From the NCBI GenBank assembly GCA_004322365.1, contig SCTS01000002.1, forward strand, positions 12,993 through 76,992: a stretch of 64,000 nt of DNA. The letters run 5' to 3'. This DNA comes from Patescibacteria group bacterium. GTDB lineage: Bacteria > Patescibacteriota > Minisyncoccia > Phycocordibacterales > Phycocordibacteraceae. The notes under the pieces were generated by a model. That model made no database searches, had not been told where the DNA came from, and saw only the letters and a list, made by a program, of their open reading frames with translations. Positions 1,079 to 52,122 of the stretch are shown piece after piece. Made by a program: the position numbers and the translations under genes. Numbering within the stretch: position 1 is the first letter of the stretch; each line of letters begins with the position of its first letter.

Positions 1079-3439
1079 CTAAGGAGTTCGCCCTGCCGCA
1101 ATCTCCTGTATGTAGTATTCACCTTGAGCTTTGAATGTAGCATCAATGGCAATCGCCTCCTGTAGAGCCTGAATCGCGTTTAATCTATCGCCTGCCTGCA
1201 TATACGCAGCTGCAAGCTGAACGCGTGCCTTTACATCCTTTGGTGCTTTATCAGCGCGTGCCTTCGCTATCAAAAGACCGTTCGCATAATCTCGTACATC
1301 AAAATACGCCTGCAGAATATTGTCATCGTCAGGCGTTGCTGTTCCAAAACGCTCCGTAAGAAGTTCGCGAGCAAGAGTCATGTTGCCACTCCTAATTAGG
1401 GCCGATGCATAGAAAGTGCGTGCAGTATCGTATGAAGGCTCTAGCTCATACGCTTGGCGAAATAAATCTAACCCGGTCTTCATATCTCCTCGAGCTATCT
1501 GTAAACTTCCAAGCTGAAAGAGTATTTGTTGTTTTTTGGGAGACAGTGTTAATGCTGTTGTAAGTTCTCTGAGAGCCTCGTCATTCTTTCCTATCTGCTG
1601 AAAAAACGAACCAAGAAAAACACGGAGCCTTGCATCGTTAGGGTTTAGTGCAATTTCTTCTGACATCTTTTCTAACGCATACGCTGTTGCGCCCTCTCGA
1701 AATGCAGTGTCTCCAATAGAAGAGTTCTTTGCCTGAATAGCAAATTGAACAATTTGCTCACGTACCTCTTGCCTGCCTAATCCTGTTGTCTCTCCCGCAC
1801 TCTTGAGGTAACGCACATTTTCAGCAAGTCCTGCGGTGTGAGGCTTTAATGCTTCAATGAGATTCGTTGCCGTCGCAAGTCCAGGAACATTGGCAAAATA
1901 AAATACAGCAACCATTCCTCCAACAATTATAGGAGCGCCGAATGCAAATAACCCTGATGGAACACTTTTACCCCAGAGAGTAATCAAGGCATTTGTTGAT
2001 TTTTCGTTTGACGTAGTAGTATCCGCCACATCTTCTCTACGGTGAGCAATGTACGCAAGGATGGTGAAGAAGAAGATATAGCTAACGAGATTGTCGAACA
2101 CAAACAAATCATGAAAGGCATATGCAGCAAGAAGGCCGGTCAATATTCCTCTCTCTACTATCTGAAAAGAAGATTTTGGTCGCCACAAATACCACAAAGC
2201 GAGTCCGAACAAAGAAATCCAGAGAGTAAAACCGAACACTCCACCAGCCACCAGCCAGTCAAGGTATTCATTGTGAGCACGGTCAAACCACGACTCCTGC
2301 GCATACATTGATGGAGCGTACTGTTTGTTAAAAATGTAGTTAAAGTTTTCTTGCCCCCAACCTAAGAGTGGTCTTTCAGCAACACCTTTAAGGGCCATGT
2401 TCCAAATAGCAAAACGAGCTGCACCATCAGAAATAGAGATGTTGGTAATTCGAGACAATACGCCGTTATTTTGCACAAACGAAGTGTCACGGATAGCGTA
2501 AAAGCCCCCCGCAATAACAACAAGAGTAATAATGCCTGCAATGCCTACTTTTTTTAACTTAGGTGCAGTTTTCCCAAAGAAAATAAAAATAGCCGAAGCA
2601 ACGAGAATGCCTCCAATAAGCCCAAGAATAGTTCCTCGAGTTCCCGCATAGAAAATCATGGTGAACTGTAATGCAATCGCTAGAGCATAAAACCACTGTC
2701 GTTTAACGAACAAGCTACCAATGCCAAGAGTGAAAAATAGTATAAAAATAAACCATCCTAAAGGCGGTAGTGAGGTGTCTGGAGGCAAGCTCGCAATTAG
2801 CCATAGTGTCGCACCGATGATCCCAAAGACACCAACAACTTTTTCTCCCGTTCTGAAGTATTCATGTCGGTGATGAAGGAAAAGCAATCCTACAATAAAA
2901 AGATTAAAAAGCATGTACACAGCCAGGTAGGTTGCGTTGCCAAATGTCCCATCAACACGCGAACCTCCTTGATTGATGGTAAATACACCAGCAAGCTGAA
3001 GCACACCATAGACCCCCACGGCAATAGAAACTGCGAGACTCGTTTCAAAAAGCATCTTCCACCATTTCGCTTCGCGGAGTGTTGACCACACAACGACAAA
3101 AAATGCGTAGAGGTGAATCAAACCAATCCATCCTTCCATGCGTTCAAAATTTGACCAGAAGCTCTTATGGGGATTCGCACCAAATATGTCAGCAATACCT
3201 ATGACTGCAACAAAAGCCGTGAGTGCGAAAAAGAGTAGAGATGCACGAGGTCGAACGGATACGTCCCGAAGTGCAAGAATAAGCCAAAGAGTAAATACAA
3301 TTTCAACCAAAATGCGAAAGGCAAAATTCTTACCCGTAATGAACGGGAAAAAGAGTGGCGTCGCCACAATAGTGGGAGTAAAGAATACCGCAAGAACCCC
3401 AATGACTATCCCCCATCGCAACCATGAGTCTAATTTCAT
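1079..3439 (-). CDS. O-antigen ligase / Wzy_C-family polytopic membrane protein with C-terminal TPR repeats (possible O-oligosaccharyltransferase or polymerase)
   Basis: 786 aa. N-terminal ~450 aa has many TM helices typical of WaaL/Wzy_C-type proteins. C-terminal ~300 aa has TPR-like repeats (AYxxLG..G....A...F..A.ELDP pattern). Confidence 0.55.
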   Translation of the reverse strand: MKLDSWLRWGIVIGVLAVFFTPTIVATPLFFPFITGKNFAFRILVEIVFTLWLILALRDVSVRPRASLLFFALTAFVAVIGIADIFGANPHKSFWSNFERMEGWIGLIHLYAFFVVVWSTLREAKWWKMLFETSLAVSIAVGVYGVLQLAGVFTINQGGSRVDGTFGNATYLAVYMLFNLFIVGLLFLHHRHEYFRTGEKVVGVFGIIGATLWLIASLPPDTSLPPLGWFIFILFFTLGIGSLFVKRQWFYALAIALQFTMIFYAGTRGTILGLIGGILVASAIFIFFGKTAPKLKKVGIAGIITLVVIAGGFYAIRDTSFVQNNGVLSRITNISISDGAARFAIWNMALKGVAERPLLGWGQENFNYIFNKQYAPSMYAQESWFDRAHNEYLDWLVAGGVFGFTLWISLFGLALWYLWRPKSSFQIVERGILTGLLAAYAFHDLFVFDNLVSYIFFFTILAYIAHRREDVADTTTSNEKSTNALITLWGKSVPSGLFAFGAPIIVGGMVAVFYFANVPGLATATNLIEALKPHTAGLAENVRYLKSAGETTGLGRQEVREQIVQFAIQAKNSSIGDTAFREGATAYALEKMSEEIALNPNDARLRVFLGSFFQQIGKNDEALRELTTALTLSPKKQQILFQLGSLQIARGDMKTGLDLFRQAYELEPSYDTARTFYASALIRSGNMTLARELLTERFGTATPDDDNILQAYFDVRDYANGLLIAKARADKAPKDVKARVQLAAAYMQAGDRLNAIQALQEAIAIDATFKAQGEYYIQEIAAGRTP

Positions 3440-3636
3440 CCCGTTAGAAATAGGGCGCGAACGCCTGTGCGCCCCCGCCTATTTGAGCTATGTATGTAAT
3501 ATTCGACTGTGACATGGTGAGATTCATTGACATGCGTCCGCGATTTCTAACGGGATTCATGCTGATTACTATACCATTTCTCTATCCGCATCCTGCAACT
3601 CTTCCGTGAGCCCTTGTATGAGAATAGCCAGTGCTA

Positions 3637-5253
3637 TCAGGGGTTCACGCTACAATCCCGTGCTTCGTAGATGTATATATCTTTTCCTAGTTGTTGTATC
3701 TGGTAAAAAGACGGCATAAGCATTCTGCCGAGGTTTATATCAATATCAAACACATCAGCCACCCCATTACCAAAATGTGCGAGTGGCGTGCAATTCACCA
3801 CTTCTCGCTCAACAATAATAAGATCAGCGGCCGGCACATCGGTATGCGCTAACAAATCGGAATCGTTCGTAACAACGAGTGGCCGAAACGAAATATCGCT
3901 CGAGAGCGCTTGTGTATGTTGGCACGCGGAGCCACACGATGATGGTGCATACAAAGCGTACGAAACTTTGTTCATTGGGAGCGTAAACTCAAAAATATTT
4001 TCATCAATACGAATCTCCGTATCTCCGTAACGCTCTACTATATAGTCGTACGCCACATTGTAGGTCGTAGGTATGGAGAGCAATACTATCGTATACACAT
4101 ACACAGCGAGCCCTACAACAAAAAAGACGCGCGACACCAATCGCAAAGGTGGTTTGAATGAGGCGAGGAGAAAGAGTAGAAAGAAGCCGACAGGAGCGAT
4201 GTGTCGAACATTGAGCGCAAGTCCGTGGTCGGCCCGGAACACAACCGAAACCGCAATAATATAAAGTGCGCTATACAAAAGGGCGAGGAAGAAGAGCGCT
4301 TTGTTGCGTATGCCGGCATACACAGCTGGTATGAGCGCCAAAAGAAGCAAGGGAAACGATTCAACGGCTTGACGCACATTAACTATGAGCGACTCAAACA
4401 CCGTAAGCGACGTCTGCACACTTGCACCTGCAGAATTAGACACGAAAAATTGCATCACAAATCCGGAAGCCTGCTCAACAACATTTCCCGCATTCAGTGC
4501 AAAGAACCCCAAGAACACCACCATGCCAACTGCAATCATCACTATAAGTCGCTTGAAGACTGCGGGTGTACGCCAAAATACGAAAAGAAGTATCGGAATA
4601 TTAATGAGAAAGAGGCCGGCAAAAAGGAAATTAGACGCTGCCAGAAATGCCGTCATTATTGAAGTGAATGACATCCATCCCAATTGACCACGCTCTCGAT
4701 CTTCCGTTATTGCACGGTACAGATAGATAAAAGAAACAACAATGAGAAGAATCGAGAGCATCCACATTTTGCCTGAGCGCACAAGAAGCGTGGTAAGCAC
4801 ACTGCCGAAGGTAAGCATGAGGAGTGCGAGTCGCCACTCCACACCTTGAATGTGCGCTTTCAGAAATCGGTACACTAGTATCAAGAGCGCCACCGATGTG
4901 AGCGCAGAGACAATGCGCGGTACGATGAGACTATACGAAGGATTCTGAATAAGCGCAGTTTTCAAAGCCACGATGTCGAAACCGAAAAACGGAATACTGC
5001 CAGCAAGTGCGACCACCATGGCGACATAATTCTGATAAAACGAGAGTGTGCCGTACGCGACACCGTAGCCTGGTAGAAGCGTGTGCGCTTCAATGGCACG
5101 GAGCACTCCACCGCCAAATGCCCACACATCGGTGATAGTGTTCACCATAGGGAACGCGTACCATACGCCAACAAAAAAACTTGCGCCAAAAATCATAATC
5201 ACCCACTGTTCCAGCGTCATGGCACGGAGGATGCTTCGCATTCTATTCAACAT
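3637..5253 (-). CDS. Polytopic membrane protein, probable GT-C superfamily glycosyltransferase (ArnT/PMT-like)
   Basis: About 12 predicted TM segments and a C-terminal soluble domain. Start set at the internal Met (MLNRMRSILRAMTLEQW), because the longer ORF would overlap the divergent gtrA promoter region and the REP-like repeat. Confidence 0.4.
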   Translation of the reverse strand: MLNRMRSILRAMTLEQWVIMIFGASFFVGVWYAFPMVNTITDVWAFGGGVLRAIEAHTLLPGYGVAYGTLSFYQNYVAMVVALAGSIPFFGFDIVALKTALIQNPSYSLIVPRIVSALTSVALLILVYRFLKAHIQGVEWRLALLMLTFGSVLTTLLVRSGKMWMLSILLIVVSFIYLYRAITEDRERGQLGWMSFTSIMTAFLAASNFLFAGLFLINIPILLFVFWRTPAVFKRLIVMIAVGMVVFLGFFALNAGNVVEQASGFVMQFFVSNSAGASVQTSLTVFESLIVNVRQAVESFPLLLLALIPAVYAGIRNKALFFLALLYSALYIIAVSVVFRADHGLALNVRHIAPVGFFLLFLLASFKPPLRLVSRVFFVVGLAVYVYTIVLLSIPTTYNVAYDYIVERYGDTEIRIDENIFEFTLPMNKVSYALYAPSSCGSACQHTQALSSDISFRPLVVTNDSDLLAHTDVPAADLIIVEREVVNCTPLAHFGNGVADVFDIDINLGRMLMPSFYQIQQLGKDIYIYEARDCSVNP

Positions 5254-5267
5254 AACGATACGAGAAA

Positions 5268-5381
5268 GTATACCCCCACACCAATTCTTTTGAAATTTCA
5301 CCATATTCAAAAAATATCTACCGAGAGAAAAATTCTTTCTTACTATAGGAAATACTGTGTGGAATTGGTGTGGGGGTATAC
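5268..5381. repeat. Perfect 20-bp inverted repeat pair GTATACCCCCACACCAATTC (5268-5287 and 5362-5381) in a divergent intergenic region
   Basis: Read directly: copy b is the exact reverse complement of copy a, spacer about 74 bp. Related single copies occur at 19818, 21925 and 34296. Confidence 0.8.
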
Positions 5382-5459
5382 CGCCAAACGGAGAGTGTGG
5401 CTGGACGAGCACGATGTATACTACTAGCGATGACTTGGCTGATTGCACTTCATACGCGA

Positions 5460-18883: not shown

Positions 18884-19518
18884 AACAAAGCGCATACATT
18901 ACGCGCGAGAGAATTAACCGTCGTATCAACGCGCAAGAGTTTCTTAATCTCGGGGAGTGTGAGCCAAATGTAATCTTCAGTAACGGGCACTTCTTCCGAT
19001 TCGTCCACCTCCACAAGCATTGAACGGTTCACCTTATGAAAAAACCGACCGCCGTCTTCGACGCCCAAAACTGATGCAATGAGTCTTCCTTTCGTCCCGT
19101 CAAAATATTCAGCAAGTCGTGGACGCTTTCCTCCATGCGCTTGCGCCAGATTGCCTTCGGAAACCTGACATGCCGGCGATATCTGCACATTGTTGATATT
19201 CCCCGGCTCAAATTTTGCATAGAAAAGATACTTTGTGACACCGTCTTTCTTTTGCACTAACACGCCTGAAATGCCGACCTCTTCCTGTTTCAACATCGGC
19301 TGACTCCACGACGGCACTTCCCTGTCCGACGCACCTGTTATCTTTACGCCAATAATCGAGAAAAATTTTCCTGACTCATGCGTGATATTCCCACTTACAG
19401 GATCTGTTTTCCAACCCTGCACATCATTTACCCCGACCGCTTCCACGGTGACTGGGTACGAATCCTGCTTTTCTTTGAGCCACGCGAGAATGGGATTTAT
19501 ATCAACGTCTTCATTCAT
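18880..19518 (-). CDS. Hypothetical protein, candidate single-domain NDP-hexose 2,3-dehydratase (EvaA/TylX3-like)
   Basis: 212 aa; EDGGRFFHK motif reminiscent of the EEGGRF motif of hexose 2,3-dehydratases. Context: immediately upstream of a Gfo/Idh/MocA reductase and near a sugar C-methyltransferase, as in 2,6-dideoxysugar pathways. Confidence 0.3.
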   Translation of the reverse strand: MNEDVDINPILAWLKEKQDSYPVTVEAVGVNDVQGWKTDPVSGNITHESGKFFSIIGVKITGASDREVPSWSQPMLKQEEVGISGVLVQKKDGVTKYLFYAKFEPGNINNVQISPACQVSEGNLAQAHGGKRPRLAEYFDGTKGRLIASVLGVEDGGRFFHKVNRSMLVEVDESEEVPVTEDYIWLTLPEIKKLLRVDTTVNSLARNVCALL

Positions 19519-19536
19519 ACCCCCACACCTTTTATC

Positions 19537-19791
19537 TCATAAAATGCTTCTTGAAATCCTCCTTTTGAGTTGCCCGAGCGCTTTCCCATCTTTCTTGAGA
19601 GAAAATTCTCTACCTCTTGCATCTCGTTCTGAAGTGTAAGCCTCATAATAACAGAGCTCAAAGGGTCGGCGAGGCTTGGTAGATTTGACCGCTCCGCCAT
19701 TGTGTTCGGAAAGTCTTCGACGCAAATCATTTGTCGATCCAACGTATAACTTTTCATCCTTGAGGCTTTTAAGCACATATACGTAATACAT
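19537..19791 (-). CDS. GIY-YIG nuclease-domain protein (stand-alone, UPF0213-like)
   Basis: YYVYVLKS...KLYVGSTNDLRRRLSEH: canonical GIY..YIG..R..H motif; 84 aa. Confidence 0.7.
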   Translation of the reverse strand: MYYVYVLKSLKDEKLYVGSTNDLRRRLSEHNGGAVKSTKPRRPFELCYYEAYTSERDARGREFSLKKDGKALGQLKRRISRSIL

Positions 19792-19830
19792 AGCGAATGG
19801 GTGGAGCCAATGAGATAAAAGGTGTGGGGG

Positions 19831-21060
19831 TCATACAATTTCAACACTAGGGATAGGGATAATAAATTTGGCACCGCGTGCACGCAATTCTTTTTCTTTT
19901 TCGAGAATGAAGTCACGGTAATTCCACGCAAGCAATAACACGTAGTCCGGCGTCTCGGTCTTTAGTATATCGGGAGAAACGACTGGAATATGACTCCCTG
20001 GTGTAAGGAGTCCAATTTTGTACGGAGTTGTATCAGTAACATACTCAACATCATCTTGAGTAAAGCCACAAAAATTTAAAAGAGTGTTGCCTTTGGCTGG
20101 TGCGCCATAAGCAACCACCTTCTTCTTTTCTCTCTGCATTCCTCGCACGAGCGACACGAGCTTCTCTTTGATTGCCTCTGCGTCTTTCTGGAAATCAGCA
20201 AATCGCGCGAGTGAGTGAAGTCCTGCTTTCTCTTCAAGTGCGAAAAGTTCATGCACAGAATTTTCAATCGGTAATCCGGACGCCTTGCGAGCAAAGACAC
20301 GAATAGACCCACCATGCGTCGGCATGCGTCGCACATCAAAAACTTCCATACCAAACCGACCAAATAAGTGCTGTAGAGGTTTCACGCTGTAATAGCACAG
20401 ATGCTCATGATAAACCGTATCAAATTCCCCATGCTCCACGAGGTCTAGTAAATAGTGCGACTCCGAAACGAATACGCCGTCATCAGTAAGAAGATCTTTT
20501 ACCCCTTGCACAATTTCATCAAGATCGTCTATGTGCGCAAAAACATTGTTCGCGGAAATGACTTTTGCCTTGCCCTTTGTCTCAACTATTTTTTTCGCCA
20601 TTTCAATGGTAAAAAAACCGTCCTCAGTTTCGATTCCTTTTGCACGCGCAGCTTCGGCAACATTCGCCGACGGTTCAATACCGAGCACTCGATTTGTACC
20701 AATGAAATTTTGTAACAAAATGCCATCATTGCTACCAATATCAACAACGAGGTCGTCTGGCGCCACATGTTCACTTTTTAAATCATTCGCATACGAACGA
20801 AAATGGTCAACGAGCGGTTTAGAAGCAGAGGAAAAATACGCATACTCACCGTGAAAAAGTTCGTCTTCCGCAACTACATCGAGAAGTTGAACCAGGTTGC
20901 AGGTACCGCAAAAATACACATCTAAGGGGTATCGTTTTTCGTCTTTGATATGTTCGGCATCAGTAAAATTATCAACTGGCGGATGCTCGCCAAGCGAGAG
21001 AATGCGCGTGAGACTAGAGCCTTTGCACACACGACAGATATCATTACGAAGATGGCTCAT
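19831..21060 (-). CDS. NDP-hexose C-methyltransferase (TylCIII/EryBIII-like; Zn-ribbon + class I MTase + C-terminal C-MT domain)
   Basis: N-terminal CxxC...CxxC (CRVCKG..CGTC), motif I VVDIGSNDG, 409 aa; architecture typical of sugar 3-C-methyltransferases. Confidence 0.6.
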   Translation of the reverse strand: MSHLRNDICRVCKGSSLTRILSLGEHPPVDNFTDAEHIKDEKRYPLDVYFCGTCNLVQLLDVVAEDELFHGEYAYFSSASKPLVDHFRSYANDLKSEHVAPDDLVVDIGSNDGILLQNFIGTNRVLGIEPSANVAEAARAKGIETEDGFFTIEMAKKIVETKGKAKVISANNVFAHIDDLDEIVQGVKDLLTDDGVFVSESHYLLDLVEHGEFDTVYHEHLCYYSVKPLQHLFGRFGMEVFDVRRMPTHGGSIRVFARKASGLPIENSVHELFALEEKAGLHSLARFADFQKDAEAIKEKLVSLVRGMQREKKKVVAYGAPAKGNTLLNFCGFTQDDVEYVTDTTPYKIGLLTPGSHIPVVSPDILKTETPDYVLLLAWNYRDFILEKEKELRARGAKFIIPIPSVEIV

Positions 21061-21084: not shown

Positions 21085-21918
21085 TTATACCTTCCATTCC
21101 TCGGACACATACTCAGCAAGTGCCTCTTGCCACGGTCGGAGAGCTACCCGTTTTGAGGAAATAGATTCATTTGTTGGAAGCGTTGTGCTGGATGCGAAGT
21201 AACTTCGATCGACGGCACGCACGTGTGCGTCTGGCTTTACGTGGGTAGCCATTGCAGTAGCGAGGTCAAAGCGCGTAGCGGTACCAGCATTTGCAATGTG
21301 AAATATGCCCCGCTCGCCTTTTTCGAGCAGGTCTTTAATCGTTGCAACAAAATCTTTCCCGTATGTTGGCGAACCGTGCACATCGTAGAGAGCGGTGACC
21401 TCTGTGCCCGACCGCAATTGTTTCAGGACTTTTCCGTAAAACTTATTGTCTCGATCAGAACCACCACCAAATACCCACGCGGTGCGAGCGATGATGTACG
21501 ACTCTACAAGTGATGCGACGATGAGCTCGCTCATGTATTTAGTGCGGCCGTAGTGCGTCTGCGGATCTGGCGCGTCATCTTCAGTGTACGGACCTTTTTT
21601 GTGCCCGTCGAAAACACGCGAACTCGAAGCGAGAACCATGGTCGCGCCAACTGATGTGGCAGCTTGCGCCACATTGTACGTACCGCGCACATTAAGCTCG
21701 TAGGCATACAGGGGATCCTGTTCTGTTTTCACCATGTCAGTTGCGCCTGCGAGGTGAATGATCGCGCTTGGATTGTTTTTTTTGACGAACTCCATGACTG
21801 CATCCGCATCAAGAATATCGAGTGTTGTTTGGTCTGGACGATAGCCGAAATCTACATACGAACCGATCATTCCGCCGGCACCAATGGTAAGAACTTTTTC
21901 GAAATCAAAAGAGTTCAT
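21085..21918 (-). CDS. dTDP-4-dehydrorhamnose reductase-like SDR (RmlD-like 4-ketoreductase)
   Basis: Start set at MNSFDFEKVLTIGAGGMIGSYV (glycine-rich NAD motif), YGRTK YxxxK catalytic motif, about 277 aa. The upstream part of the track ORF carries the REP-like motif and is probably untranslated. Confidence 0.5.
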   Translation of the reverse strand: MNSFDFEKVLTIGAGGMIGSYVDFGYRPDQTTLDILDADAVMEFVKKNNPSAIIHLAGATDMVKTEQDPLYAYELNVRGTYNVAQAATSVGATMVLASSSRVFDGHKKGPYTEDDAPDPQTHYGRTKYMSELIVASLVESYIIARTAWVFGGGSDRDNKFYGKVLKQLRSGTEVTALYDVHGSPTYGKDFVATIKDLLEKGERGIFHIANAGTATRFDLATAMATHVKPDAHVRAVDRSYFASSTTLPTNESISSKRVALRPWQEALAEYVSEEWKV

Positions 21919-21940
21919 AGAGATGAAAGGTGTGGGGGGG

Positions 21941-22657
21941 TCATACAGCACGCTTCGCGATCTCATGTGCGACACGGAGTAGAGATTCGAATGTGCCCGC
22001 GTCCGACCACAAACCTTTAATAATTCCGTGGGAGAGTTTTTCTTTCTTGATATAGATGTTGTTGGCGTCCGTAATTTCCAACTCACTTCGCCCTGAAGGC
22101 TTCAGCGTTTTTATGATGGAAAAAATATCGTTGTCATACAGATAAAAACCAGTTTGGGCAAATTTTGATTTTGGTTTCTTTGGTTTTTCTTCAATCTTCA
22201 CTACCCTCTTACCTGCTGTATCAAACACGGGCACACCAAAACGGTGTGAGTCATTCATTGCCTTAAAAAATACTTTCGCGCCACCATTGAAAGAGGCAAC
22301 ATCTTTTGCAAAATCTTGTTCAAATATATTGTCACCCAGAATGACAGCAATCGGCCCTCCGTCGGAGAAATCTTCCGCGTAGCGTAGCGCGTCGGCGATA
22401 CCTCCGTTGTTTTTGTCTTGCAACGCATACGAGAGCTTGACACCGAACTCTCTGCCCGAGCCGAGGAATTGCATAAAGTGGCCCGCATGCTCGCGTCCAG
22501 TTACTATCATGATATCGGTAACGCCTGAACGCTGCAGCGTCTCCAGAGGGTAGAGAATCATTGGTTTGTTGTATACAGGAAGAAGGTGCTTATTTGTAAT
22601 AAGCGTCAAGGGGCGCAAGCGTGTACCGAGTCCTCCTGCAAGAATAACGCCTTTCAT
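21941..22657 (-). CDS. Sugar-1-phosphate nucleotidyltransferase, short-form glucose-1-phosphate thymidylyl/uridylyltransferase (RmlA-like)
   Basis: MKGVILAGGLGTRLRPLT signature, 238 aa. Confidence 0.7.
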   Translation of the reverse strand: MKGVILAGGLGTRLRPLTLITNKHLLPVYNKPMILYPLETLQRSGVTDIMIVTGREHAGHFMQFLGSGREFGVKLSYALQDKNNGGIADALRYAEDFSDGGPIAVILGDNIFEQDFAKDVASFNGGAKVFFKAMNDSHRFGVPVFDTAGKRVVKIEEKPKKPKSKFAQTGFYLYDNDIFSIIKTLKPSGRSELEITDANNIYIKKEKLSHGIIKGLWSDAGTFESLLRVAHEIAKRAV

Positions 22658-26681: not shown

Positions 26682-27591
26682 AGGCTTCAATAATGCGTGG
26701 AATAAGACTCTGGAGCGAATGATGTTCGCGAATGTACGAGGGAGAAAGTGGAAGCCCGTTGATTGCAGGGTCAGTGGAATCGACCAGGCAACCACAGGCG
26801 GCGGCCTCCAAAACCACTTTGTCCAAAGAGCCAGTTTCACTGCGGTGGATAAGCTTTGTGGCAATGCGGTATTCGTCGCGAAGCCCTAATTGCGTGAGTC
26901 CACCTAGAAAAGTAACCTGAACACCGAGCTCACGCGCGAGCGCCGTAAGGCGCTCGCGCTCAACACCCTCTCCTGCTATACGGAGGGCGACGCCTGCATC
27001 TTTTGCCACGCGAATTGCAAGGTCGTGACGTTTGGTGGGCATAAGACGCCCAACGGAAAGAAGATGATTCCCGCGGGACACCTTCTCATCTGGAGCGAAA
27101 AATTCGGTATCAATACCGTGACCCATGACTTGCAGTTTTTTAGATGGCAGTCGAAAACTTTCCTTTGAGGCAGTGAAAATAACATCCACAAAAAGCTCAG
27201 CGACACGCAGTTTTAAATCTACCGATTTGTGCGTATACCACAAACCTATTGATTTTTTCCACGATTTCCAAAATAATCCACCAAGAATCACATACTCCGG
27301 ATTCATGTGAACGAGTACGGTGTCATAGTTTTTTCGCAATTTCCAAATCAGATATAAAAACCGAACCGAATACCCTATCCGCTTCAACAAACCACTATCA
27401 TATATGATAGTGGTTTGTTCTTTGCCCAGAGAATGAACACGAACATTTGATGGAAGATTATGTTTCCCCTCTTTTAAACAAATCACCTCTATACTCTCCA
27501 CATGCTTTGAAAATTCTTCAATCCAACGATGAAAAAATCCTAAGATGGCATCATCCCTATCAACGATTTGTGTAACGAGAAGGAGCTTCAC
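26671..27591 (-). CDS. GT-B fold glycosyltransferase (GT4-like)
   Basis: 306 aa; MKLLLVTQIVD N-terminus and GT-B C-terminal half with E-x7-E-like region (VVLEAAACGCLV). Confidence 0.5.
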   Translation of the reverse strand: MKLLLVTQIVDRDDAILGFFHRWIEEFSKHVESIEVICLKEGKHNLPSNVRVHSLGKEQTTIIYDSGLLKRIGYSVRFLYLIWKLRKNYDTVLVHMNPEYVILGGLFWKSWKKSIGLWYTHKSVDLKLRVAELFVDVIFTASKESFRLPSKKLQVMGHGIDTEFFAPDEKVSRGNHLLSVGRLMPTKRHDLAIRVAKDAGVALRIAGEGVERERLTALARELGVQVTFLGGLTQLGLRDEYRIATKLIHRSETGSLDKVVLEAAACGCLVDSTDPAINGLPLSPSYIREHHSLQSLIPRIIEAYVA

Positions 27592-34294: not shown

Positions 34295-35389
34295 TTATGA
34301 AAGGTGTGGCTCGTTTTCAAGAAGCCGTTGCAATGTGGGCTTTATATCCTGACTTCTATTTTTAGACATAATCAAGACCGCGTCTTCAGTTTCTACCACA
34401 ATAAGATTATCAACCCCAATAGCAACGATTGGTCTATGGGTACTTATGAGGAGAGTATTTTTACTTTCATGCTCAACCACTTTCCCTGCAGTATGAAGAC
34501 CCTTCTTTCTTTTCTGAGTGAGAATACTGTGTACGGCTTCCCAATCACCGATATCAGACCAATCGACAGAAGACGGAATAACAATGAGTCGTGCAGTCTT
34601 TTCAGTAATCAAGTACTCAAACGACTGTTTTGATAGTTTCTTAAAATACACTCCTGCACTTTTTGATTTATCTGCGAGAGCCCCTACAAGAAGATGAATA
34701 TTTTCTTTATATTCTTTTTTCGATTTCTTCAGCATCTCCAAAAGATTTTTTGCGTTTGTGATTTTATAGCCGGTATTCCATAAGTAACGCCCAGAAGCGA
34801 TGAACTTCAATGCGTGCTTTGTGTCAGGCTTCTCAACAAAAGATTCAACACGGTACAGCGGTGCCCGAAATCCTTTGATTGGCTTCGCATCATTAAAACG
34901 TATATATCCTAAACCTGTGTGAGGTGAAAGTGGTCGTACTCCTATCATCACAATATCCTCAGGAAACTGCCGTGCTGCATCAAAACCCAACGCAACAGAG
35001 TCATGAAAAATCTTCGGAGTATCGATGAGATGGTCTGAGTTAAAAATTCCTACAGTAGCATCTTTATCTTTTGCATAAATCACCGCCGCAGCAAACGCAA
35101 ACGCTGGTGCGGTATCACGAGCTTCAGGTTCAATGATTATGTTCTTCTTCGCAATATCTGGCTCCTGCTCCTGTATATACGATAAATATTCTGCAGGAAT
35201 TTGTACAAAAATCTTCTCTGGGGCGAATGACAGCAAGAGCTGTTTGTACATGAGCTGAAAAAGCGTTTTCTCTCCAACGAAGCGTTGAAACTGCTTCGGT
35301 TTATTTTTTCGACTCAAAGGCCAAAGTCGTGTTCCGCTACCGCCAGCCATGATGACTGCGTAGTCATGAGAGTTTTTTGTTTTTTTCAT
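34295..35389 (-). CDS. Mannose-1-phosphate guanylyltransferase-like nucleotidyltransferase (ManC/CpsB N-terminal domain type)
   Basis: AVIMAGGSGTRLWPLSRKNKPKQF signature; 364 aa, no cupin/PMI domain. Confidence 0.6.
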   Translation of the reverse strand: MKKTKNSHDYAVIMAGGSGTRLWPLSRKNKPKQFQRFVGEKTLFQLMYKQLLLSFAPEKIFVQIPAEYLSYIQEQEPDIAKKNIIIEPEARDTAPAFAFAAAVIYAKDKDATVGIFNSDHLIDTPKIFHDSVALGFDAARQFPEDIVMIGVRPLSPHTGLGYIRFNDAKPIKGFRAPLYRVESFVEKPDTKHALKFIASGRYLWNTGYKITNAKNLLEMLKKSKKEYKENIHLLVGALADKSKSAGVYFKKLSKQSFEYLITEKTARLIVIPSSVDWSDIGDWEAVHSILTQKRKKGLHTAGKVVEHESKNTLLISTHRPIVAIGVDNLIVVETEDAVLIMSKNRSQDIKPTLQRLLENEPHLS

Positions 35390-40626: not shown

Positions 40627-40668
40627 CGATATAGTTTAATCTAACGATCGTTAGATTAAACTATATCG
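40627..40668. promoter_or_regulatory. 42-bp perfect palindrome CGATATAGTTTAATCTAACGATCGTTAGATTAAACTATATCG (operator-like), copy 1
   Basis: Read directly; centered on GATC. Lies between the PaaX-like gene stop and the T4CP-like gene start. Confidence 0.75.
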
Positions 40669-41323: not shown

Positions 41324-41365
41324 CGATATAGTTTAATCTAACGATCGTTAAATTATACTATACAG
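41324..41365. promoter_or_regulatory. Operator-like palindrome copy 2 (imperfect right arm: CGATATAGTTTAATCTAACGATCGTTAAATTATACTATACAG)
   Basis: Read directly; about 40 bp upstream of the PaaX-like start. Confidence 0.65.
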
Positions 41366-45097: not shown

Positions 45098-45160
45098 CTA
45101 TACATCTTTGCCCTTCTAAAAAAATGCGCTACCTCATTCACTGCAACTAAGGGGAAAACT

Positions 45161-45202
45161 TCGATATAGTTTAATCTAACGGTCGTTAAATTATACTATA
45201 TC
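45161..45202. promoter_or_regulatory. Operator-like palindrome copy 3 (CGATATAGTTTAATCTAACGGTCGTTAAATTATACTATATCG)
   Basis: Read directly; about 65 bp upstream of the hydrolase operon start. Confidence 0.65.
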
Positions 45203-45286: not shown

Positions 45287-45326
45287 TTAATACACCCCTA
45301 ATTCGTGCGAATTAGGGGTGTATTAA
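45287..45326 (-). terminator. Strong hairpin TTAATACACCCCTAATTCG-TG-CGAATTAGGGGTGTATTAA (19-bp perfect stem), candidate terminator after the P-loop kinase gene; related to the REP-like GTATAC-C5 family
   Basis: Read directly. Two further hairpins at 45265-45281 and 45235-45255; the latter is followed on the minus strand by a T-run. Confidence 0.45.
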
Positions 45327-47951: not shown

Positions 47952-48197
47952 ACGGTCATGGTATCAAATCGTCTGTGGAGATAATCACGTCAAACTTAAC
48001 AAAGTTTGACGTGATTATTATCTATTCTCGTCTTGGCGCCTTGTGGGGCGTCCGCGACGCGAATTTGCACCTAGGACTTCTTGGTGCCATATCTATGGCA
48101 CTCGCGAAGCGAATTTGAGCTTACAAGTCTTTCCGATGATGATATAACCTCGTCGAAATTTGCTAATTTCGACGTGATTTTTACGCTTAAAAATCAG

Positions 48198-48966: not shown

Positions 48967-49111
48967 ATCGTCAGTATACTCTCAGAAACAAAGCATTTTC
49001 TCCATGTATCACTGTAGCACTACAGTGATACATGGAGAAAGAAAGCGAAAATAAAACCTCGAGAACATCGAGGGATTCTACTTCAGACTACGGTGCGCGC
49101 TTCGTTCGCAC

Positions 49112-50828: not shown

Positions 50829-51014
50829 AATAGGCGCTGACCTACAATTGAATACGTATCAAGAGTGTGAGGAGGCATCTGGGCCTACGATTCACCAGCA
50901 ACTTGTCGAAAGATAAAGTGCTACCAGCCCTTCGGGGAAAGATATCTTACACAAAATCTTTCCTTAATAGGGAAAGATTTTTTATTTATTATTCACTCAT
51001 TAATCAACATCAAT

Positions 51015-52067
51015 ATGCTTCACTTACTTAAGACATACACAACCGAGAGCGTTACCGCAGGACATCCCGACAAAGTCTGCGATCAAATATCAGATGCAAT
51101 TTTAGATGCCTGCTTAACGCAAGATCCAACAAGTCGAGTAGCTGTCGAGTCTTTTGGCAGTCATGGATACATGATGCTCGGCGGTGAAGTGCGGACAAAT
51201 GCGACAGTTGATTATACAGGTATCGCCCGTAAGGTCTATACAGATATTGGCTACACAGAACCGTTAGATATTCTTGAACATATCGCCAAGCAATCTGGAG
51301 ATATTGCGATGGGTGTAGACACCGGTGGCGCAGGTGACCAAGGCATCATGTATGGCTACGCTACAAATGAAACAAAAGAAATGCTCCCATTAGGTGTCGT
51401 ACTTTCTCATGCACTTGCACGCCGACTAGAAGCGCTTCGTCGTGACGGAACACTTCCCTGGGCACGACCAGATGGAAAAACACAAGTCACCATTTCAAAT
51501 GGCAAAGTAATTACTGCACTCACTTCAACTCAGCACACAGCGGATGTTTCTCAAGAAGAAATTCGCGCAAAACTCACCGAGCATTTGTTCGGGTCAGTAT
51601 TGGGAGATCTATCGGGAATTGAAATACTAGTGAATCCAACAGGTCAATTTATTCAGGGAGGATTTGAAGCAGACGCAGGTCTCACTGGACGAAAGATAAT
51701 GGTAGACACCTACGGAGGTTTGATGCCACACGGGGGCGGAGCTTTCTCAGGAAAAGACGCTACAAAGGTTGATCGCTCCGCTGCGTACATGTGCCGATTT
51801 GCTGCAAAGAACCTCGTTGCAAATGGCTATGGCACAAAAGTATTAGTGTCAGTTGCCTACGCTATCGGTCGCGTGGAGCCAGTGATGGTTGAAGCATTTG
51901 ATGATTCTGGAAAAGACTTGAGCGAGATTGTGCAGAAAAACTTTGACTTCCGTCCACGGGCAATTATTGAGCGCCTAGGACTCACCCGCCCAATCTTTCA
52001 AGCAACAGCAGCATACGGACACTTCGGCGTTGAAGGTAGACCATGGGAAAATATTGAGAAAATCTAA
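51015..52067 (+). CDS. metK: S-adenosylmethionine synthetase
   Basis: ESVTAGHPDKVCDQISDAILDA and GGGAFSGKDATKVDRSAAY signatures. Confidence 0.9.
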   Translation: MLHLLKTYTTESVTAGHPDKVCDQISDAILDACLTQDPTSRVAVESFGSHGYMMLGGEVRTNATVDYTGIARKVYTDIGYTEPLDILEHIAKQSGDIAMGVDTGGAGDQGIMYGYATNETKEMLPLGVVLSHALARRLEALRRDGTLPWARPDGKTQVTISNGKVITALTSTQHTADVSQEEIRAKLTEHLFGSVLGDLSGIEILVNPTGQFIQGGFEADAGLTGRKIMVDTYGGLMPHGGGAFSGKDATKVDRSAAYMCRFAAKNLVANGYGTKVLVSVAYAIGRVEPVMVEAFDDSGKDLSEIVQKNFDFRPRAIIERLGLTRPIFQATAAYGHFGVEGRPWENIEKI

Positions 52068-52086
52068 AACGATTTCTTTTTAGAAA

Positions 52087-52114
52087 CAAAAAATCCCGCA
52101 TGCGGGATTTTTTG
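52087..52114. terminator. Bidirectional Rho-independent terminator (AAAAAATCCCGCA|TGCGGGATTTTTTG)
   Basis: Perfect palindromic GC-rich stem flanked by A-run and T-run between convergent metK and the pilin gene. Confidence 0.75.
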
Positions 52115-52122
52115 TTAATGCG

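Follow-up and report, generated by a model that had tools for sequence, protein, structure and literature searches.

The perfect inverted repeat at positions 5268-5381, beside gtrA, is probably a 104-bp gene-less member of the hairpin-GIY elements, a family of mobile DNA of very small size found in Patescibacteria. Positions refer to the window, that is, the whole stretch of 64,000 nucleotides that was analysed; the source genome is represented by these 64 kb only. Complete members of the family, one of which is also present in the window, carry the gene of an 84-aa single-domain GIY-YIG nuclease (Slx1/UPF0213 type). Their insertion duplicates 4-5 bp of the target, and orthologous sites in relatives vary in the presence or absence of the element. 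Loci outside the window are cited by their L numbers.

The gene-less element beside gtrA

The two 20-nt arms at 5268-5287 and 5362-5381 are 100% complementary over a spacer of 74 nt, as the first-pass annotation had described. It had placed them between gtrA and a GT-C gene; GtrA was confirmed by Pfam, but the GT-C label of the ORF at 3637-5253 found no Pfam support. The element itself spans 5273-5376 (104 bp) with TATA on either flank, and is made up as follows:

5269-5272: left target-site duplication TATA (an empty allele with a single TATA is found in L085, against the filled L083)
5273-5287, plus strand: left arm CCCCCACACCAATTC, the first 10 nt of which are the conserved core
5288-5361: interior of 74 nt, without ORF and without conservation
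5362-5376, plus strand: right arm GAATTGGTGTGGGGG
5377-5380: right target-site duplication TATA
5381-5389, plus strand: arm-like half-site CCGCCAAAC, which abuts the duplication and is a candidate target determinant

Beyond the right duplication, GTATACCGCCAAAC shows 86% identity to the arm sequence GTATACCCCCACAC. When the gene-less copy was folded as single-stranded DNA, its arms paired (z = -6.0). The exact 15-nt arms of the window were found by a metagenome scan in 12 distinct copies, whose interiors are all unrelated, and the 74-nt interior is therefore taken to have no conserved function. About 4 of the 12 metagenome gene-less copies with AATTC arms carry a clean duplication. One of the 12, in L092 (2019-2125), has its arms CCCCCACACCAATTC around a complete tRNA-Val(TAC) gene, with a gap of only 2-3 nt between arm and tRNA.

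The membrane-protein gene (3637-5253), which is divergent from gtrA, has its ATG at 5253, and the TATA site is found 16-20 nt upstream of this codon. The state of the site in the window and in the relatives is listed here:

Window: gene-less element of 104 bp
L081: mini-hairpin of 34 bp
L083: gene-less element of about 100 bp
L086: mini-hairpin of 29 bp
L082 and L084: decayed inserts of about 38 bp flanked by two TATA
L085: empty, with a single TATA

The flanks of the site in L083 and L085 are 73-80% identical, and the comparison of the filled with the empty allele proves that TATA was duplicated on insertion. The site is filled in six of seven relatives, every interior being different. This persistent filling could mean that the site is a hot spot, or that the hairpin has a host function.

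A host function of the regulatory kind had been suggested in the first-pass annotation, in the form of a shared regulator or terminator-antiterminator site. The repeat would then be an operator, terminator or antiterminator common to sugar-pathway operons. This would be in keeping with its divergent intergenic position so close to the ATG at 5253, with the GGGGG/TATACT junction retained in four relatives, and with a promoter-like TTCAAA-16-TATACT built from the element interior and the duplicated TATA. Duplications, an empty allele and unrelated interiors are not expected of such a site, nor are a nuclease gene within the arms, the same arms in unrelated contexts and phyla, presence or absence among relatives, or insertions in 23S rRNA and RNase P RNA genes; moreover, the loop is 74 nt long and no terminator-type T run follows the stem. 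The regulatory palindrome is thus largely refuted, and we consider it very improbable. An intrinsic terminator or operator palindrome was also rejected as a class, on the 74-nt loop, the missing T run and the differing presence at orthologous sites. A Shine-Dalgarno or promoter motif was rejected as the primary explanation, given the occurrence in both orientations, the duplications and the absence at orthologous sites; the first-pass annotation was reasonable in not counting the C-rich arm as a Shine-Dalgarno sequence.

A full-length element in the sugar operon

The complete element of the window was mapped between the C-methyltransferase and NDP-hexose 2,3-dehydratase-domain genes of a long minus-strand sugar operon:

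19520-19830, minus strand: full-length element of 311 bp, with the element-sense left arm at 19810-19830 and the right arm at 19520-19540
19537-19791, minus strand: GIY-YIG nuclease ORF of 84 aa (Pfam PF01541, E = 8.6e-18)
19831-19835, minus strand: upstream target-site duplication TATGA, containing the stop codon of the C-methyltransferase gene
19515-19519, minus strand: downstream target-site duplication TATGA, containing the ATG (19518-19516) of the NDP-hexose 2,3-dehydratase-domain gene

Positions 19519-19540(+) and 19810-19831 are perfect inverted repeats of 22 nt, ACCCCCACACCTTTTATCTCAT, 269 nt apart, and the arms also pair when the full copy is folded as RNA (z = -3.4). The motif recurrences previously listed on the minus strand are real, both here (about 19821-19834) and at 21929-21942, but the partner arm at 19519-19540(+) had been overlooked. 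In addition, the start codon that was said to follow 9-30 nt on is, at 19791, that of the GIY-YIG gene and not that of the next gene of the operon. The stop codon of the nuclease ORF (TGA, 19537-19539) falls within the right arm, as it does in complete elements of the family.

The PF01541 match covers residues 1-71 of the 84-aa protein; no second domain was found in it by the Pfam search, and it retains every family-invariant residue. Of the solved structures, the UPF0213 proteins 1zg2 and 1ywl, and SLX1, are nearest; among annotated relatives, a YazA-type protein of B. subtilis comes closest (about 43% identity). No NCBIfam model scored above its cut-off (TIGR01453 reached 24.6 bits against a cut-off of 56). 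The GIY-YIG domain being the sole ORF, the element has no transposase of the DDE, HUH, serine, tyrosine or DEDD class. Between the nuclease copies of the window and of L001, dN/dS is 0.026/0.412 = 0.06. We also noted that AGGUG of the G-rich arm lies 7 nt before the ATG at 19518 (19515-19530, minus strand); from this spacing, the element may give the downstream gene its ribosome-binding site.

The family in Patescibacteria

No protein identical to that of the window was on record. Its close homologues, of 70-92% identity, number more than 390, and the source names, where stated, are almost all of Patescibacteria (CPR). A scan of species-representative genomes gave a sample of 80 loci. In 42 copies, from dozens of Patescibacteria genomes, the GIY-YIG gene lies between CCCCCACACC ... 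GGTGTGGGGG arms, and these complete elements measure 277-337 bp, mainly 311-319 bp. More divergent nuclease copies have arms that are divergent too, yet inverted. The earlier proposal of a dispersed palindromic (REP-like) family was therefore essentially right, the motif being the terminal arm of a hairpin element repeated in many Patescibacteria genomes.

The arms are about 21 nt long (43 elements). Their outer positions 1-11, CCCCCACACCT, are at least 85% conserved, whereas positions 12-21 take all four bases across copies, with an agreement of 67-95% between the two arms of a copy. Since the inner bases vary yet match within a copy, selection is seen to act not only on the outer sequence but also on pairing, or on the identity of the arms. 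The divergence of the arms follows that of the protein (Spearman rho -0.73, reached in 0 of 2000 Mantel permutations), from which arms and gene are taken to pass on together as a unit; this co-divergence may reflect mere physical linkage. The nuclease gene is under strong purifying selection (median dN/dS 0.089 over 88 unsaturated pairs), and the residues of the catalytic motif are invariant in 22 homologues. In most full copies a CATATAAT box stands 7-8 nt before the nuclease ATG, and its placement suggests a leaderless-type promoter with a -35-like TTTCRT within the left arm. This TATAAT box has been lost from the nuclease copies of the window and of L001.

Genomes may hold several nuclease copies, two of them adjacent in L045 and again in L055. 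Gene-less forms range from mini-hairpins of 28-37 bp to copies of 100-136 bp. Duplications were found around gene-less copies of 104-136 bp (L016, L018, L045 and L017), around arms-only hairpins of 28-37 bp (L011, L050 and L005) and around further gene-less copies in L081 and L086. No other candidate enzyme gene was tied to the arms in the 80 loci. Phage carriage was rejected: IMG/VR gave only one weak partial match, and the matches in GenBank phages were distant YazA-like genes. Rfam gave no match at any window copy at gathering thresholds, and a known RNA family was ruled out for these copies.

Target-site duplications and empty sites

A locus of Parcubacteria bacterium Greene0714_7, L001, is syntenic with the window, the two being 88-96% identical in nucleotide sequence. 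L001 carries an element at the junction of a 212-aa and a 335-aa gene, with the sequence ttgcTATGA/CCCCC...GGGGG/TATGAaaaaaat, where the window is empty (ttgtTATGAaaaaaat, no palindrome). The window element lies one junction upstream of that of L001, which has only a solo arm there. These reciprocal filled and empty sites prove the 5-bp TATGA duplication and recent movement of the element. In the wider sample, a direct repeat of at least 4 bp abuts 32 of 50 elements (64%), against 4.3% in a control in which the left flank of one element was combined with the right flank of another. About a third of the elements are without a clean duplication. Hairpin-GIY elements thus move, and duplicate their targets.

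The TATGA duplication restores both the stop and the start codon, and the bias towards stop/start junctions is explained by insertion into ATGA-type overlaps. The motif itself had been thought to overlap the stop codon of the upstream gene. This holds only for the decayed arm at 34297; elsewhere the stop codon is in the duplicated TATGA.

Solo arms and other palindromes of the window

The arm core CCCCCACACC repeats far beyond chance level in the window. Indeed, TATACCCCCACACC occurs 14 times with at most 3 mismatches, against 2.5 +/- 1.5 in shuffled sequences, 0 of 100 of which reached 14. Apart from the two elements described above, the following copies were considered:

21920-21940, minus strand: solo arm CCCCCCCACACCTTTCATCTC, with TATGA at both sides (21941-21945 and 21915-21919)
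34297-34309, minus strand: decayed solo arm CCACACCTTTCAT, a 13-nt exact match to the arm
45287-45326: hairpin with a perfect 19-bp stem, family membership unproven

At the junction orthologous to the solo arm at 21920-21940, L001 has the G-rich end of an arm. Solo arms with the duplication on either side are thus found both at 21920-21940 of the window and at 2302 of L001. We found no repeat-mediated route to a duplication-arm-duplication arrangement for these solo arms, and their origin as simple deletion products was rejected for this reason; nor does simple cut-and-paste account for solo arms inside a double duplication. In L001 (2296-2330) the solo arm and duplication, 24 nt together, are in frame with the dehydratase-domain gene, and would extend its N-terminus by MTPTPFISK if the ATG of the left TATGA is used.

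The weaker form reported earlier near 34296-34312 is indeed present, at 34297-34309. By our estimate, chance would give about 0.002 exact 13-nt matches to the arm type in this window. This decayed arm provides the final codons of the upstream gene and the first base of its stop codon TAA (34295-34297). The hairpin at 45287-45326 likewise exists, but its proposed relationship to the family was left unproven, as no target-site duplication accompanies it and none of 101 fetched loci has a similar sequence.

Several palindromes of other kinds were observed. A second family of gene-less hairpins is represented at 3439-3555 by an element of 117 bp with arms TCCCGTTAGAAAT / ATTTCTAACGGGA and a 4-bp duplication, TTCA, at 3435-3438 and 3556-3559. 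Related copies are found in L027, in L049 and in L001 (953-1072), the last with a TGAG duplication and absent from the orthologous window site at about 21056-21060; no partner gene was identified for this family. The palindrome family CGATATAGTTTAATCTAACGA occupies three intergenic sites (40627-40668, 41327-41362 and about 45150-45195), one copy being a perfect 42-bp palindrome. Further perfect palindromes with 16-21 bp per arm were seen at 27386-27419, 47981-48018, 48997-49040 and 52085-52116, and the one at 52085-52116 (AAAAAATCCCGCA / TGCGGGATTTTTT) has the look of a bidirectional terminator. A SAM riboswitch (Rfam RF00162, 46.1 bits) was mapped to 50853-50948 on the plus strand, upstream of a 350-aa ORF at 51015-52067. 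Finally, an 80-nt perfect palindrome at the contig end of L081 (1-80) is probably external to the element and an artefact of assembly.

Insertion sites

The targets of the elements are varied. Read outward, the flanks show T-W-W-A followed by C, corresponding to a preferred G/TWWA/C target. On one side, an arm-like pentamer stands just past the duplication in 12 of 33 elements, where 1.5% is expected (p = 5e-14), and targets often have an arm-like CCACA half-site beside them. The adjoining pentamer is TTATCCACA(G), the DnaA-box consensus, in 11 of these 12 cases. Eleven elements with a TTAT duplication adjoin a single DnaA-box-like 9-mer TTATCCACA(G), in L004-L009, L011, L013, L019, L020 and L031. 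Such 9-mers may reflect arm mimicry in the target or a real link to DnaA sites. The boxes are single and not clustered; they are therefore read as pseudo-arms, i.e. arm-like half-sites, and their interpretation as origin markers was rejected.

RNA genes are among the targets. A GIY-YIG element was mapped inside the 23S rRNA gene of L029 (2961-3273, within the Rfam LSU match at 1332-3474), and elements lie in the 5' part of the RNase P RNA gene in L055 (2973-3613), L069 (2987-3273) and L076 (2959-3264). The latter directly precede the GAGGAAAGUCC strand, the place of helix P3, and L055 has two elements within the one RNase P RNA gene. None of the window copies is in an RNA gene.

These insertions bear on a further explanation, in which the arms and nuclease are a domesticated pair that has ceased to be selfish and serves the host, for example in shaping recombination, in DNA uptake or in RNA processing, along the lines put forward for Ssn/NTS and REP/RAYT. 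The strong purifying selection on the protein and the persistently filled TATA site upstream of the membrane-protein gene would agree with this, and domestication has been proposed in the Ssn paper for an architecture that it calls identical to insertion sequences (PMC11893778). Multiple nuclease copies per genome, lying side by side in L045 and L055, speak against such a role, as do insertion sites that differ between relatives at 88-96% identity and insertions in rRNA and RNase P RNA genes, a pattern typical of active selfish DNA. We regard domestication as improbable.

Possible mode of movement

By analogy with Ssn enzymes, which cut near the repeat that they bind, the nuclease would recognise the C-rich arm, probably in the form of a single-stranded DNA hairpin, and would cut 4-5 nt outside it. 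Arm-like half-sites would be picked as targets through the same recognition as the element ends, and the duplication would arise from repair of the staggered cuts. Gene-less copies would be mobilised in trans. In RNA, the paired arms would make the whole element a helix extension, which would explain its tolerance between coupled genes, in 23S rRNA and in RNase P RNA. We infer that the nuclease itself moves the element; the 84-aa protein has no DNA-binding domain, which counts against this step, and we know of no GIY-YIG enzyme that joins DNA strands.

A two-layer arrangement has also to be weighed, in which another enzyme spreads arms-only palindromes and a free-standing GIY-YIG homing nuclease cuts them and is copied into their loops. 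The versions of 29, 34, 100 and 104 bp at one TATA site, which share their outer cores and differ in their interiors, are readily accommodated by it, and so are the mutually unrelated gene-less interiors, one of which is a tRNA-Val gene, as they fit an exchange of content in a constant hairpin. However, L001 carries the whole unit of arms, gene and TATGA duplication where the window has a naive site without a palindrome; the 80 loci yield no alternative enzyme gene alongside the arms, and the protein is without the DNA-binding domain of the known homing GIY-YIG enzymes. We think this arrangement rather unlikely.

If movement is instead driven by the element's own nuclease, hairpin-GIY elements might be autonomous prokaryotic transposons of a class not recognised before, smaller (about 315 bp) than any other known, with one GIY-YIG nuclease and a split hairpin, duplications of 4-5 bp next to arm-like half-sites, DnaA-box-like TTATCCACA among them, and tolerance as a helix extension in operons, in rRNA, in RNase P RNA and around tRNA genes. 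We offer this wider reading tentatively, as one with a real chance of being correct.

Implications

Should the 84-aa nuclease move the element, GIY-YIG enzymes would have to be counted among the drivers of prokaryotic transposition, and a new lower size limit would be set for autonomous mobile elements. The elements would also explain the GIY-YIG ORFs that have been reported from CPR rRNA genes, in insertions that are not introns. A connection with selfish DNA would be provided for the Ssn single-strand nucleases and for the 'minimal' Slx1-like GIY-YIG proteins of bacteria. They suggest how reduced genomes could tolerate mobile DNA, with insertion into ATGA overlaps restoring both codons and insertion into RNA genes adding a helix extension. 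Moreover, the pairs of arm and nuclease are candidate sequence- and structure-specific cutters of single-stranded DNA. Annotation pipelines should flag hairpin-GIY elements, which are a source of false gene extensions and split RNA genes.

Comparison with known systems

The closest known system is Ssn/NTS. An Ssn enzyme consists of a lone GIY-YIG domain; it binds a hairpin-forming repeat in single-stranded DNA and cleaves the variable flank a few nucleotides to the 5' side of the repeat (PMC11893778). Repeats stand on both sides of the Ssn gene, in an architecture termed 'identical to' insertion sequences (Chenal et al. 2025, Nat Commun, PMC11893778). Both systems have a single-domain GIY-YIG gene of about 90 aa within hairpin-forming repeats that are also dispersed in the genome, and the few-nucleotide offset of the Ssn cut fits the 4-5 bp offset of the hairpin-GIY elements. 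They differ in that Ssn genes have a complete hairpin on each flank, whereas the flanks of hairpin-GIY genes are the two halves of one hairpin with the gene in the loop. Duplications, empty sites and gene-less derivatives are found here and are not reported for Ssn, and Patescibacteria are not mentioned in the Ssn paper (PMC11893778). By sequence, the nearest solved relatives of the hairpin-GIY nuclease are UPF0213 and SLX1, a structure-specific nuclease. The SRM motif HGTCWYN(0-2)YYVSBRHN(0-5)WNVSBRGN(0-2)RNCYNB had no match in the window, and none of 88 gene copies had a match on both sides within 500 nt, while the canonical NTS, used as control, matched the pattern. Membership of Ssn by the SRM motif was rejected on this absence from the window and the 88 gene copies.

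Like REP/REPIN-RAYT systems, the family consists of intergenic palindromic repeats with one small nuclease gene between inverted copies and hairpin-forming non-autonomous doublets. RAYT (TnpA-REP) is an HUH/Y1 transposase, and its genes are usually single-copy; we know of no target-site duplications at REPINs. Here the enclosed gene is GIY-YIG and duplications are present, and membership of REP/REPIN-RAYT was rejected.

MITEs and insertion sequences (Correia elements, IS200) are similar in that they have terminal inverted repeats, short target duplications of fixed length and derivatives without a gene, and in that their insertions are polymorphic between relatives. The hairpin-GIY elements likewise have terminal inverted repeats of about 21 nt and duplications of 4-5 bp, checked against empty sites. 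Insertion sequences differ in having a recognised transposase, the sole ORF here being an 84-aa GIY-YIG domain. The smallest insertion sequences known to us are of about 700 bp, and the coding hairpin-GIY element (about 315 bp) is less than half of that.

A 2024 survey described GIY-YIG ORFs in insertions, other than introns, of CPR rRNA genes (Tsurumaki et al. 2024, J Bacteriol, PMC11270868), and the 23S rRNA copy of L029 is a case of this kind. Inverted repeats are nowhere mentioned in the survey, and the ORFs that it describes lie in rRNA-gene insertions, whereas most hairpin-GIY copies lie outside rRNA genes. With regard to rRNA intervening sequences, which occupy an rRNA helix, have pairing ends and are removed by RNase III, one copy was seen within 23S rRNA (L029) and three in the 5' part of RNase P RNA genes. 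GIY-YIG homing endonucleases of the I-TevI/Seg type were rejected as a candidate, as there is no second domain, the targets are varied and duplications are present.

Rickettsia palindromic elements are small palindromic repeats in protein-coding and RNA genes that can be read in frame. The solo arm of L001, which becomes an N-terminal extension, resembles them in this respect, with no sequence relation; to our knowledge, no enzyme is encoded within Rickettsia palindromic elements.

In the full-text literature we found no description of GIY-YIG elements of bacteria that have inverted repeats and are flanked by duplications. With the SRM motif absent, no known transposase, no homing DNA-binding domain and an architecture for which the literature searches gave no description, the hairpin-GIY elements are therefore classed among systems of the repeat-plus-small-nuclease kind.
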